Positions 23,857 through 36,302 of a stretch of 64,000 nucleotides of DNA are shown piece after piece. Under the pieces are notes generated by a model. That model saw nothing but the letters and a program-made list of their open reading frames with translations. It was not told the origin of the DNA and did not search any database. A program made the position numbers and the translations under genes. The DNA lies in contig NC_042997.1 of NCBI RefSeq assembly GCF_006345805.1, forward strand, positions 28,830,001-28,894,000, in the 5' to 3' direction. Each line of letters begins with the position of its first letter. Within the stretch, counting starts at the first letter, position 1. The stretch comes from Octopus sinensis. Its lineage: Eukaryota.

Positions 23857-24216
23857 TGGTTATTTACCCAATGTGTTCGAAGATGATTAAACGGTCCCAC
23901 GTTCGATTTCATTATTTGTTATATCCGAAATTTTGTATACGGAAAGTTGTAACAAAAGTTAGTGGCGACTATAATTTCTATGGAACATCTGTAGAAATAA
24001 ACTTTATCAAGTGATATATATATATATATATATATATAATAATAAATATTAGGGAATAAATCCAAATTTACAGGGAAAAAATCAGATTTAGGATTAAATC
24101 CAATTTTATAGTAAAATATTATAAAATATTATTAGAGACAAAACCACTATTTTGCAAAACAAACAAGGAAAGACTTAATCAATACATAAAATTTTAATAA
24201 ATAGTCAAAAAAACCG

Positions 24217-24259
24217 CCACTACAATCGTTTCTTGTCTTGATCGACAATCTTCAGGTGG
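24217..24259 (-). ncRNA. Minimal type-I hammerhead ribozyme (canonical core)
   Basis: Exact mirror of 24324-24366. Confidence 0.8.
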
Positions 24260-24323
24260 ACTTCCAATAATTCAGTGTCAAATTATGAAGTACTTCATAA
24301 TTTGACACTGAATTATTGGAAGT

Positions 24324-24366
24324 CCACCTGAAGATTGTCGATCAAGACAAGAAACGATTGTAGTGG
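24324..24366 (+). ncRNA. Minimal type-I hammerhead ribozyme (canonical core)
   Basis: CCAC-CUGAAGA-UUGUC(GAUCAA)GACAA-GAAA-C(GAUU)G-UA^GUGG; predicted cleavage after 24362. Confidence 0.8.
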
Positions 24367-24894
24367 CGGTTTTTTTGACTATTTATTAAAATTTTATGTA
24401 TTGATTAAGTCTTTCCTTGTTTGTTTTGCAACATAGTGGTTTTGTCTCTAATAATATTTTATATATATATATATATATATATATAATATATATATATATT
24501 TATATTTATATATATACACACATACATACATGTGTGTCTTTATATACGACATATGTACATACACACACACATATATACACATATACATGAACGTATATAT
24601 ATATATTGTTAATAGCAAATTTACTCCCAAGAATATTTTGTTATAGTTCTACATATATCCTTGAGGAAATTTAATACCACCTCCATAGGAAATAATAAAT
24701 AAATTAAACGCCTGAAAATCTGTTGCAACGCGATCAAACGGCGATAATATGAATGTTCTATAACAGGAGAATGCAGTGAATGTAATAAAACTTCCTAAAC
24801 GATCTCTTAATGACCATCTTGTGTTAGTAGGTAATCTAAATTTAAATTTCCGATAAAATTTCATATTAATTTGTTTTGTAAATACTAGCTTTAT

Positions 24895-25082
24895 CATTAT
24901 TTCAACTCTAGGCACAAGGTCTTGAAAATGTTTGACGAGACGGGCTAGTCGATTATATCGACTCCGAAAGGATGAAAGGCAAAGGCATATTCGTTGGAAT
25001 TTGAACTCAGAACCTAGCGGCAGAATAAATATTGCTAAGCGTCTCGTCCGGCGTGCTAAAGATTCTGCCAGCTCGCCGCCTT
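24895..25082 (-). mobile_element. SINE family C
   Basis: gtcgattatatcgactccgaaaggatgaaaggcaaag...ctgccagctcgccgcc. Confidence 0.85.
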
Positions 25083-25169
25083 AACACTAGCTTAACATTT
25101 ATTTTACTAAACTTTCTATTATTTTAAAATTAATTAAATCAAAGATTATGTCTTTCAATAGAAATATCA

Positions 25170-25565
25170 TTTTGTACACTAGGCGCAAGGGGTGCAATTT
25201 TTAGGGAGGTTGCCAGTGGATTAGATTGACCCCAATATGAAACTGGTTCTAAATTTATCGACCCTAACAGGATGAAAGGAAAAATCGACCTCGGTGGAAT
25301 TTGAACTCAAAAGGTAAAGACAGACGAGATACCTATTTCTTTACTACATACAAGTGGCTAAACACAGAGGGGACAAACAAGGACAGACAAACGGATTAAG
25401 TCGATTATATCTACTCCAGTGCGTAACTGGTACTTATTTAATCGACCCCAAAAGGATGAAAGGCAAAGTCGACCTTGGCGGAATTTGAACTCAGAACATA
25501 ACGGCAGACGAGATACCGCTAAGCATTTCGCCCGGCGTGCTAACATTTCTCCCAGCTCGCCGCCT
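25170..25565 (-). mobile_element. SINE family C, dimeric form
   Basis: Two ggatgaaagg...gaatttgaactca units joined by gatacctatttctttactac; head at 25545-25565. Confidence 0.85.
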
Positions 25566-32250: not shown

Positions 32251-32809
32251 CCAATATAAAATATTGTACGTTTAAACTCAAGAGAAATCTACATTTAATA
32301 TGTAATTCTTACAAGCTAGAAGAAGCAGTCAAAACGACCAAAACCACATTTAAGAGCAATTTTCGAAGGGAATGGAAAATAAAACCTTTTACCTTGCTAT
32401 TTTTTACGGTTTTACCTAGTTTCAGATTATTATATATATGTGTTTATGTATGTGTGTGTGTGAAGCTACATTTTAAAGCCCGGATATATTTCTATGCTTT
32501 GAGTGTATCGTTACTCGTCAAGCCCATTGTGGAAATTTTTTGTCTCTCATGATAGCGTCTACATCTGTGGGTGTATGTGAAGTTGAATGTGTACGCCGAT
32601 GTTTATATATATTAGGCAACCTCTGCGTATGTACGTTGGTTAATATCCAAAGCCTGTATATATATATATATATATATATATATATATATATATATATATA
32701 TTCATATATACCTATGCAGTATGTGTCAATTTCTGAGTGTTGGGATATGTGTAAATATACATATGCTTGTATATACATCTCTTTAATCATAGATATTTTC
32801 TTGTTTGTA

Positions 32810-33060
32810 AGAGAAAAAGTTTCCTTCAATATCTGTTGCGAAATATACTTTCATCTTTATATTTCGATTACAGGGTTTCACGTTAACAAAGAAGAAACAA
32901 ATATGTAATTTCTCATTAAACCGGACTACCTTCTTTCACAGTTGCATATTCAAATACACTCAATTGCAAAAGAGACGTGATACGTGTATGAGTGTGAAAT
33001 ATGTTTAAATTCATTTTGTCTGAGATATATTTTGATAAATCTCATAAAGTCAATTACTTG
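32810..33060 (+). pseudogene. Possible decayed C2H2 zinc-finger array remnant
   Basis: YECEICLNSFCLRYILINLIKSIT has C2H2 spacing with the His residues lost; upstream REKVSFNICCEIYF resembles a second finger. Confidence 0.3.
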
Positions 33061-33074
33061 GATGTACTATGAAC

Positions 33075-34369
33075 ACAGTGTATGGGGCGTTGTTATGTGT
33101 TCTTGTAGTGTGCGGATCCAGCACATCTTGATTGTAGGACGTAACATGTTCAATACCGTGTATGTCGTCCCTGGGTTTTCAAAACGGCCAAATATCGTCG
33201 GTACATGGATGCATGAGGCGGTTCACAAAAGCCATTGGCACGTGTGCCCACATCATCTGGAAAACTGCCTCCAGTTCCTCATGAGTTGTCGGCGTTGGGA
33301 CCACCTAGTCTAGCTGTATGTGTATTTCATCTAACATGTGTTCAATTGGGTTCAAATCCGGACTGAGAGCCGTCCACGTAATGTTTCTGATATGCTGCCG
33401 CCGGAAACCCATACTAAGCCTCACCGTGTGGAAGGGAGCATTGTCCTGCTGGAACACACAGCTTTTGCGCCGCCCATAGAATGGAACGATGTGAGGTCTT
33501 AGGATCTGCTCAACCTAGATCTGCGCTGATGACTCTGTCTGCACCAATATTTTGGAACATATGAGGCCCAATTTTCGGATTCCGGCCGATAGCAGCCCGA
33601 ACCATGATGCTTTGGACACTCCAGGCGTCTCTATACATTACACATGCATCTCTTACGCCACACCGTCACTCTGCCACCCGAGGGGGTAAAAACGCACAAC
33701 CGTCTCTCCTCAGAGAAGACTATTGATCGCCCTTGTTGATGCTGCCAATGTCGGCGTTATGTAGCCCACGATAATCGTGCCTGACGGTGGCGGGCGATGA
33801 GAACAGACCCGTCACCTCGTACCGGATGATGTCAACGCTAGTTGTTGGCGGCCAGTCGACGTCGCACCGTGTCCTCGCTGATGGGTCGCTGTCCAGTGTC
33901 AATGGTTACGCGAAAGGTCACGCTTGCCGGTATGAAGCGATGACGGAGGTGCTGCAGGTGAATGAATCGGTCCTGCCTAGGCGTGTTCACCCTGAGATGC
34001 CCTCTGCGGCCATGCGGTTTGTGTTGTGTCGTTGTTGCAGGCGATAGATGTGCCGATAGATTGTTCTCCCTGTGCTGCTGACAATTGGGTCATATCAGAT
34101 GCCCTCAAATTACTAATGAAAGGAACGCGGTTCAAGTTGATTTTTACGCATTCCTATTTTAATGACAAGTGTGTGCGACTGCCAATCGCGGCATTCAATA
34201 CAGCTGCGTTTTGGCGTCTCACTTTAGGGAAATTTGAAACGATACCCGCAATGTCGGTCTCAGACTTAAACCAGCATGTCTTGGAATATTTACACTTACA
34301 TTTCCGAAATAAATTTTGAGAAGTAGCCATGTATAACATTTAAAACATCGCGTTTCTTCAACAGTTCAA
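33075..34369 (-). mobile_element. Tc1-like transposon, decayed
   Basis: Minus-strand FQQDNAPFH and WTALSPDLNPIEHML; terminal ta|cattgaactgttgaagaaacgcg. Confidence 0.85.
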
Positions 34370-35070
34370 TGTATTGTATTTAGAACAAATTATTCTACTG
34401 TATACACAATAAGTTGCAAAATTGAACTCATTCGTATTTGTTAATAAAAATAATCATTACGAATTTTGAACAAATTTTTAACAGTCAAACCGGGCTTCGT
34501 TAAGAGTTGTCCAGCTTTGCTGTACGCTAATTGAAATTTGTAAGGAGGGGTATATATGACAACAATTCATTTCTTGCTACAAAATAAATAAGTATAGGTT
34601 ATTATTACTTCAGGTAAAGTGAATGGTTTCTTTAGAATTAATGGAAATATTTAAGCAAGTATTAGGATTAGTATCTTATATATCGTTTCGCGTTTAATTT
34701 GGCGGTGGAGTTAATTTTACTGCTAGCCATAAAATACAATATGACAGCATTACATATAGTATAACTTAACATCTTACACTAACTTTGAACTTGATTTTAA
34801 ATAACACGTTGTAAGAAAAATATATATCATTATAGTTCTCTTATCATTCCCTTCTAACACACAGTTTGATTTGTAGATTTTTTCATTCTAAAGTTTATTG
34901 AAAAATACTAAATATATAATGATGTGAATTAACTCGTATACACCTATCTACTATAAATGAATCTTTTACCGTATGTTAAATTATTCATATATCTACCGTC
35001 GCTTATCCCAGAATGCTGCGATTTCTTTTTTAAAGACTATATGACGTTTCAAGCAAACTATTTTGGAGTA

Positions 35071-35419
35071 TTATTAAATCTCTGAATGAGATGTAAACAG
35101 TAACCGCTCGACAATGAAAAGTATAATAGCCATCTCAATATGGCTAGCCACAAAGGGTGTTACTGTAGCTTTTAGCCCCAGGAGATCATCGTCTCCAGCT
35201 GGCTTTAGGCACACTATCTGGGCCCTTATGGTATTTGCAAAGGGAGGCCATCCGTTTCTCGTAAGCCTAAGTGATACACACCGGACCCTTTGCAAATACC
35301 ATAAGGGCATAGATAGTGTGCCTAAAGCCAGCTGGAGACGATGATCTCCTGGGGATAAAAGCTACAGTAACATCCACCCTTTGTGGTTAGCCATATTGAG
35401 ATGGCTATTATACTTTACA
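35071..35419 (-). mobile_element. ORF-less fold-back element: 43-nt tail, about 131-bp inverted arms, 41-nt spacer, 12-bp TSD
   Basis: Arms 35114-35244 and 35286-35420; TSD tattttggagta at 35059-35070 and 35420-35431; homologous to HHR-bearing 57090-57345. Confidence 0.85.
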
Positions 35420-36302
35420 TATTTTGGAGTAGCATAACTAGAATGGCGGTGTAGGGAATGTTACTAGTCGACAGATTCTCAATCTTGATCTAGGCAATAA
35501 CCAGTCAAATGTCAATGATATCTTGATCATATCGATGTTTTAGCTTTATTGAATCATACATACACAGAAGGTCTGCTTTGATATTGCTATTGCAAAGCAA
35601 CATTACAGGCAATTTCCTTTTCATGAGTTTCGTCAACACTTTTAGTGTTCGTCCCATAAGTTGGAGAGCTCACTTTCTGAATATTTCTCTATTGCCCACT
35701 GAATAAAATTTATGCTGCATATGTAATTGCGCAAAATGTGAGCGATCTCAACAAGAAGGTAAACATTTCCCCATTTTTTAGTTAATAATTTCCGTTTTTT
35801 TTACTATTTCAATGTTATATCATAGATATGCTACCAAACTGCCTCACAAGTACTTTAAATTTTTCATGGTAGTAAGGATTTCTTCACTGGTATCCTTTTC
35901 ATACGAATTCAAGTAATAAATTTATTTTAGTTCAAAAAGTGCCATACTTCTCAATAGAAACAGTTACATTTTTATCGTATTGATCCTTACATTGATATTT
36001 CCTGTCATCTTGTAGTATTTTGAGCTTCAGAACTTCCATTGGTGGATGAAGTATGTACGTTTATATGTCATTTGAAAGCACCCATAATCTAATAAGGACA
36101 TTCTGTATAATCAAAACAAATGAAACCGAATTTGTTGAACGAAGAATCTTTTGAAATGTCACTTAACGCGGCACATCAGCACCGAAGGATGCAACGTAAC
36201 ATTTCACCCACGTGGGATCTATGCAAGATGGGTCGAAACGATTGTTTTGATTAACAAGGAATCCCGTGAGTATCATTTAATTTTCTGTTTCTATTCAATT
36301 GT

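Follow-up and report, generated by a model that had tools for sequence, protein, structure and literature searches.

Three fold-back elements share one anatomy

We analyzed a 64,000-nucleotide stretch of the Octopus sinensis genome (assembly GCF_006345805.1, contig NC_042997.1, positions 28,830,001 to 28,894,000 of the forward strand; hereafter the window, numbered from its first letter) that carries three short fold-back elements: E1 (24039-24463), E2 (26194-26567) and E3 (35071-35419). The window is repeat-rich, animal-like DNA with 34% G+C. Microsatellites aside, its strongest local inverted matches are these three elements and one pair at 60510-61118. The elements share a plan of a 44-81 nt tail, an arm of 130-172 bp and an inverted arm without the tail. 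An original prediction, made from the sequence alone, had described three unlike elements of this design, and our measurements bear it out, with tails of 81, 57 and 44 nt. BLASTN comparison of E1, E2 and E3 gave no mutual match longer than 16 nt or better than E 0.3. The features of the elements and of two solo relatives are listed below.

24039..24119, minus strand: E1 tail, 81 nt, adjoining (TA)n and containing tandem units
24120..24291, minus strand: E1 arm 1, tail-bearing; the minus strand is the RNA sense
24217..24259, minus strand: E1 putative hammerhead motif, type I with a C3-G8 core, predicted cut after 24221
24292..24463, plus strand: E1 inverted arm without tail, 171/172 identical, no loop, ending in (TA)n
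24324..24366, plus strand: second E1 hammerhead copy, a descriptor match
26184..26193: E2 left target-site duplication, 10 bp, CAGAAAATAT
26194..26250, minus strand: E2 tail, 57 nt, A+C 0.74 on the sense strand
26251..26406, minus strand: E2 arm 1, pairing with 26408-26567
26345..26381, minus strand: E2 putative minimal hammerhead with a U3-A8 core and a 4-nt palindromic helix III, a variant known from PMC4209133
26408..26567, plus strand: E2 inverted arm without tail, 7 differences from arm 1, all in the inner 51 columns
26433..26473, plus strand: second E2 putative minimal hammerhead, stem II U-A against C-G in arm 1, loop longer
26568..26577: E2 right target-site duplication, CAGAAAATAT repeated exactly
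35059..35070: E3 left target-site duplication, 12 bp, TATTTTGGAGTA
35071..35114, minus strand: E3 tail, 44 nt
35115..35244, minus strand: E3 arm 1, pairing with 35286-35419
35245..35285, minus strand: E3 unpaired centre, 41 nt, which continues the tail-bearing arm in the family sequence
35273..35288, minus strand: E3 hammerhead remnant, stem I 3' strand and GUC triplet (35284-35286)
35286..35419, plus strand: E3 inverted arm without tail, pairing with arm 1
35420..35431: E3 right target-site duplication, TATTTTGGAGTA repeated exactly
13642..13717, minus strand: short solo relative of the E2 arm, 84% over 76 nt, beginning near the tail-less boundary and adjoining (TA)n
57093..57345, minus strand: solo relative of E3 that is not folded back, 74-82% identical, possessing a tail and a complete hammerhead motif (57298-57342), between (TA)n tracts

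Two clean duplications round the whole unit had also been claimed, and both were recovered, 10 bp at E2 and 12 bp at E3. Of 5000 random boundary pairs, 8 reached at least 10 nt and 3 at least 12 nt. E1 sits in (TA)n, which leaves its duplication unreadable. The arms differ by one mismatch in 172 columns in E1 (symmetry 99.4%), by 6 mismatches and one 4-nt gap over 160 columns in E2, and by 5 mismatches and one 4-nt gap over 134 columns in E3. Bases at the two ends match at 11, 13 and 4 of 30 positions in E1, E2 and E3, so the termini are not inverted repeats. The sense ribozyme points toward the tail in each element, which places the arms head to head. All three elements do lie in the same orientation, as had been noted, but this arrangement has a chance of 0.25 and we dropped it as evidence. 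We conclude that E1, E2 and E3 are real genomic insertions.

The seven differences between the E2 arms are unevenly placed. All fall within the inner 51 of 160 columns (P 0.0006-0.003), and the outer 109 columns are identical. They cluster in and around ribozyme stem II (26345-26473) and include one compensatory C-G/U-A pair, with the motif kept in both arms. CpG is hardly depleted here (observed/expected 0.89).

The tails were also inspected individually. Three tandem units of 20-21 nt (24044-24108) may be the cause of the unusual length of the E1 tail. The E2 tail holds 27 open codons from an ATG, running off its end, a weak signal equalled in 5.2% of 5000 shuffles; a search for the start of an open reading frame (ORF) in arm plus tail found no ATG-initiated frame in E1 or E3. 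A scan of 20000-45000 for tandem units found no head-to-tail unit across E1-E3. Exact-pattern scans gave 0 matches in viral contigs and 0 in metagenome contigs.

Hammerhead motifs lie in or at the arms

Rfam reported 0 hammerheads in the window at its gathering score. A strict type I descriptor run on both window strands gave 3 matches (both E1 arms and the E3 relative) and 0 in 20 shuffles. A minimal descriptor that allows the U3-A8 core gave 6 matches, compared with a mean of 0.24 and a maximum of 2 in 100 shuffles. These six are the two arms of E1, the two arms of E2, 57336 in the E3 relative, and 43470. Single-sequence folding favoured the ribozyme fold in 2 of 5 motifs (z -3.1 and -4.0; the others -1.2, 0.7 and -0.1), and the motif calls therefore rest on the descriptor. 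By this measure, the predicted presence of a hammerhead motif in each arm of two elements is confirmed for E1 and E2.

The third element had been said to turn at the hammerhead cleavage triplet. This was correct, as the relative at 57093-57345 has the whole predicted ribozyme at that place. The remnant in E3 shares a 3-nt microhomology with the inverted arm at 35286-35288. Judged against the unfolded relative, the turn lies 2-5 bases beyond the predicted cut, and these retained bases rule out that E3 ends at a cleaved RNA end. In E1 the turn lies 36 nt upstream of the hammerhead core, and in E2 the distance is 29 nt. Bases 5' of the predicted cut are thus retained in all three elements, and all three centres carry a short palindrome (E1, E2) or microhomology (E3).

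The E3 relative has a unit of ~350 nt with a 6-bp stem I, a ribozyme of canonical type and no ORF start. Its far end (57376-57445) forms a short imperfect hairpin (-14.2 kcal/mol) followed by (TA)n. Helix III of the E3 family (35281-35288, 57304-57312) varies by subfamily yet stays palindromic or nearly so: CTGCAG, CCGCGG in contig loose ends, and CTCGGG in the relative. Such near-palindromes are as expected for a dimeric ribozyme under selection.

The elements resemble the ends of Penelope-like elements

We compared this anatomy with published descriptions of Penelope-like elements (PLEs). Passages of PMC3846280 describe a PLE with an adjacent inverted pseudo-long terminal repeat (pLTR), a one-ended 31-bp tail, duplications of 8-10 bp and junction palindromes, which are read there as self-priming. 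Excerpts of PMC8557442 call an inverted 5'-truncated copy and a 30-40 bp tail typical of PLEs, report a bias toward microsatellites, suggest endonuclease resolution for the tail and leave the cause of the structures undefined; text from PMC8969392 gives the same insertion traits for curators. E1-E3 resemble these endonuclease-bearing (EN+) insertion units in having a head-to-head inverted, 5'-truncated copy, a tail on one end only, a variable duplication (10, 12 bp), a junction palindrome, and an AT-rich or microsatellite target, with E1 and both solo relatives adjoining (TA)n. A predicted type I hammerhead motif lies upstream of the tail on the sense strand in E1 and E2 and, judged by remnant and relative, in E3. 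The E3 family also shows variable 5' truncation with a shared 3' end. Unlike the EN+ units in those excerpts, E1-E3 have no ORF, measure only 350-425 bp as whole units, carry tails of 44-81 nt instead of 30-40, and are not linked to a coding partner.

The ribozymes provide a second comparison. The portions of PMC4209133 at hand describe opposite-strand minimal hammerheads 100-700 bp apart with a U3-A8 core, regard them as probable truncated PLEs and state that dimers are needed. E2 and the 43470 motif resemble the minimal hammerheads of metazoan PLEs in their U3-A8 core, their palindromic helix III and an unpaired base ahead of stem II. E1 and E2 match the opposite-strand pairs; tail, duplication and fold-back points are not described in those portions. 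According to sections of PMC11167929, a PLE in vitro cuts and extends both target strands and is predicted to be a dimer. Two reverse transcriptase (RT) start sites bound the tail without strand difference, and uncleaved RNA is the main template. In this element, Anolis Poseidon, the start sites lie ~85-92 nt past the ribozyme cut, and the arms of E1 and E2 end 97-101 nt past it. A presumably uncleaved template and the AT-rich targets are further likenesses; the inverted copy is not treated in those sections, and the E3 distance of ~170 nt differs.

The window itself contains a PLE remnant.

42458..43506, plus strand: decayed 5'-truncated PLE, with a C-terminal ORF remnant bearing a GIY-YIG domain (42458-43111), then a putative U3-A8 minimal hammerhead of E2's type (43464-43506)

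A HMMER search found 408 relatives of its ORF at E up to 0.001, which are proteins with an RT plus a GIY-YIG domain at the C terminus. A Pfam scan of nine relatives found both domains in 5/9, RT only in 2/9 and GIY-YIG only in 2/9. Among longer proteins, a word-index search started from the GIY-YIG remnant returned 127 candidates, 0 of them significant. tblastn of 12 long relatives against the window matched 42458-43111 only, and the remnant has no nucleotide match to E1-E3. Thus, one PLE of this genome has the ribozyme type of E2 at its end, though E1-E3 do not descend from it.

The anatomy of E1-E3 is already known for PLEs and appears here in minimal form. From this anatomy we infer a PLE origin of each arm: E1-E3 are very probably the extremely 5'-truncated ends of three PLE families, likely formed afresh and not copied as palindromes. 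The proposed link of the fold-back elements to PLEs is thereby supported by anatomy, hammerhead motifs and the U3-A8-ended remnant.

Fold-back points vary in the E3 family

Short-read contigs of four runs with four organism labels were mapped to 34450-36250 at 80% likeness, a survey that covers the E3 family. Flank depth in the four runs was 50, 54, 5 and 4; depth over E3 in run X1, perhaps from the source sample, was 156,000-1,410,000, which is not a copy number. The E3 family is clearly abundant. Its copies have a common outer end, where 61, 51, 36 and 22 contigs pass at 35420 from the arm to dissimilar, AT-rich sequence (possibly a mixture; agreement 0.52-0.66). Twelve X10 contigs run beyond 35281 into a predicted hammerhead with a palindromic helix III (agreement 0.86). 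The two E3 arms share minority states of the family, as at 35216, where they have A and 321,198 of 358,870 depth units have T.

We examined 18 of 22 joints, a survey that sees junctions inside the E3 span. Eight were clean turns, 9 were ambiguous and 1 was a plain deletion. The 9 joints, with their right side at 35368-35390, were left out because an internal family hairpin and a variable G/C run there can mimic a turn. The clean turns run from 35213 to 35317; 35214 to 35311 and 35315; 35222 to 35286; 35228 to 35291; 35247 to 35303; 35251 to 35287; and 35258 to 35311. Each is one contig at a depth of 37-64, against a flank depth of 50-54, and three of them cluster at a natural micro-hairpin near 35208-35224. 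A shared outer end with variable single-copy turns is the pattern predicted for de novo formation. Formation anew at each insertion, as proposed in the original prediction, is therefore supported for the E3 family. The self-propagating class mimicking MITEs (miniature inverted-repeat transposable elements) that it had offered as the alternative is not supported, given the variable fold-back points (8 clean joints), which it had named beforehand as refuting.

One X10 contig spans the E3 centre (35225-35330) with 4 differences in 106; it carries another organism label, and X10 flanks differ by ~1%. It may be the orthologue, or another copy that turns at the same point. In X1, X2 and X3, single-copy contigs enter the E3 tail from the left flank by 27-29 letters (the bridging bar was 31 letters). 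No joint among those listed skips all of E3, and the right flank at 35487-35730 is without cover in all 4 runs. At the loose ends 35357 and 35377, 8-44 contigs per run begin tail-like and then match the E3 inverted arm; these may belong to a subfamily whose internal 3' hairpin is stronger or to a fold-back subfamily with a short tail.

Two-strand priming as a proposed source of the inversion

The inverted arm without a tail could arise if both target strands prime reverse transcription. The PLE protein would place nicks 10-12 nt apart on the two strands of an AT-rich site. One target 3' end would prime RT at the outer start site of the element RNA, so that the tail is copied, and the other would prime at the inner start site and yield an arm without the tail. 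Both cDNAs would halt early, near the structured hammerhead, and be linked head to head by way of a short palindrome in E1 and E2 and of microhomology in E3. The target-site duplication would follow from fill-in. The RNA template was probably uncleaved or re-ligated, since E1-E3 all hold bases 5' of the predicted cut. These retained bases fit the uncleaved-RNA template seen in vitro in sections of PMC11167929. We give about even chances to two-strand priming, coupled with a PLE origin, as the source of the inversion in E1-E3.

L1 twin priming offers a partial parallel. In that process, two target ends prime on the element RNA and produce a 5' inversion joined by microhomology. In L1 the second primer starts internally, which keeps the two parts from overlapping, whereas our proposal for E1-E3 has both primers begin close to the 3' end, so that one stretch is copied twice. 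A literature search, which covered few subscription papers and lacked earlier reviews of PLEs, found no paper that puts forward two-strand priming as the source of inversions in PLEs, so novelty is not proven.

The most substantial alternative is snap-back, in which a tail-primed PLE cDNA would fold on a microhomology or short palindrome and then be copied as DNA; a cut or a stop at the tail boundary would come before the second target end is joined. We regard this as a realistic possibility held at less than even chances. A palindrome or microhomology lies at all three centres, although the DNA hairpins that could form there in E1 and E2 are weak, at -0.5 to -2.2 kcal/mol. The E3 loop belongs to the tail-bearing arm, the E3 arms have minority states in common, and the three family copies that turn at the micro-hairpin agree with folding. 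Passages of PMC3846280 propose self-priming and the excerpts of PMC8557442 endonuclease resolution of the tail. Snap-back needs an extra step to lose the tail, and the sections of PMC11167929 place an in vitro RT start site at the tail boundary. Its arms would also be identical at birth, so the clustered, partly compensatory differences in E2 would need another cause. Snap-back by a PLE reverse transcriptase, as originally suggested, is thus possible, but alone it does not explain why the second arm halts at the tail boundary.

We favour two-strand priming over snap-back because the tail boundary coincides with a start site in vitro and the missing tail is explained without an extra cut. The E2 arm differences are a hint in the same direction: inner-third clustering, a stem II swap and retention of both motifs are as two templates would give. 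Among old copies, the E2 solo relative begins near the tail-less boundary and the E3 relative begins with the tail, which lends weak support to two-strand priming. Where the longer arm bears the tail, as in E3, the two routes give the same sequence.

Several observations weigh against two-strand priming. The start sites in the sections of PMC11167929 show no strand bias, so two-strand priming also predicts tail/tail and tail-less/tail-less palindromes; 3/3 elements are one-tailed, though they had been chosen for that trait. The longer E3 arm is the tail-bearing one and its arms share minority states, which snap-back predicts equally well. The identity of the outer E2 columns is unexpected for two diverged templates, although conversion could explain it. 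The E2 and E1 tails, at 57 and 81 nt, are longer than the 30-40 in print. In the window, no RT-encoding element was linked to an arm of E1-E3. The family data concern E3 alone, with 9 of 18 joints ambiguous, and the E2 hint comes from one copy.

A more specific form of two-strand priming is a symmetric two-ended integration, in which a PLE dimer primes from both strands, with a start site on either side of the tail, and can draw on two different RNA molecules. We advance this tentatively and with more doubt than confidence. If it is true, E2, in which a single duplication encloses two different intact hammerhead alleles, would directly preserve two-ended integration as a fossil. It would also account for the inverted pLTR plus tail of PLEs, a structure that has long lacked an explanation, and thousands of such copies would permit a test within a single assembly.

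Transposition of the palindrome as a whole is improbable. Under this explanation, a non-autonomous, MITE-mimicking ribozyme retroelement would be transcribed and re-inserted as an entire palindrome. The duplications do enclose the entire unit, the X10 contig repeats the E3 centre, and one X1 contig, which has 14 differences and 3 gaps and reaches just 28 letters beyond the junction, turns near that centre. The X10 contig may just be an orthologue, the fold-back joints lie at differing points at single-copy depth, and unfolded relatives of E2 and E3 occur within the window.

We also think it unlikely that the E3 family, instead of being the pLTR of a coding element, represents a non-LTR retrozyme, an ORF-less short hammerhead repeat that a PLE protein would move in trans through the same fold-back step. 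Portions of PMC7229834 and bioRxiv 10.64898/2026.07.22.740005 describe non-LTR retrozymes that, like E1-E3, are ORF-less, ~300 nt long, equipped with a type I hammerhead and probably moved by PLE proteins; the latter text proposes animal retrozymes as PLE derivatives with many monomers. The abundance of the E3 family and the canonical-type, ~350 nt, ORF-less unit of its relative agree with this. Retrozymes are defined in those portions by head-to-tail tandem units and circular RNA, whereas E1-E3 are head-to-head, no tandem unit spans them, and their hammerhead pairs lie on opposite strands. A tail together with a one-sided inversion is typical of PLE insertions.

DNA-transposon MITEs or long-read fold-back artefacts, to which the long near-perfect palindromes (above all E1) might point, are very improbable and largely refuted for E2 and E3, given termini that are not inverted repeats, mutually unrelated duplications of 10 and 12 bp, an E3 family with unfolded copies and differing turn points and thus no fixed structure, arms of E2 and E3 that differ by indels, unique flank beyond both ends, and the E3 centre in a short-read contig of another organism label.

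Predicted hairpin RNA and implications

The full units are predicted to fold into stable hairpins of -286 (E1), -233 (E2) and -244 kcal/mol (E3, z -29). If transcribed, they would give 130-170 bp of duplex RNA, a plausible ADAR or Dicer substrate. The original prediction went further and suggested that hairpin RNA could trim itself from either strand. Whichever strand is transcribed, its antisense arm precedes the one sense ribozyme, and freeing that ribozyme from the duplex would cost an estimated ~79 (E1) or ~30 (E2) kcal/mol. Self-trimming is therefore unlikely, and we dropped it on this predicted duplex-opening cost.

Units of the E1-E3 type could pass for MITEs in annotation pipelines. 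As ORF-less mini-copies they strip a PLE insertion to its ends, and counts of which arm bears loop and tail can separate snap-back from two-strand priming.

Other repeats in the window

Several further repeats lie outside the three elements. At 17119-18048, an inverted piece (17119-17253) stands head to head with a partial tandem (17281-17572 and 17660-18048, 85-87% identical), and the unit ends in a perfect 34-bp palindrome adjoining (TA)n. Neither the strict nor the minimal descriptor finds a hammerhead there. The layout resembles a PLE partial tandem plus inverted copy, or a rolling-circle element. The pair at 60510-61118 consists of inverted repeats of 190 nt, 84% alike, whose ends we take to be mariner-like; its inner ORF has no Pfam match. 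An ORF at 12450-12947 has a weak helix-turn-helix match (E 0.03) and resembles a Tc1 transposase fragment. Clusters of an abundant short repeat at 24964-25566 and 53115-53850 form partial tandems, mutually inverted and 28 kb apart, that are 77-89% alike. Finally, 36812-38085 holds a reverse transcriptase fragment of the long interspersed nuclear element type (RVT_1, E 1.6e-22).

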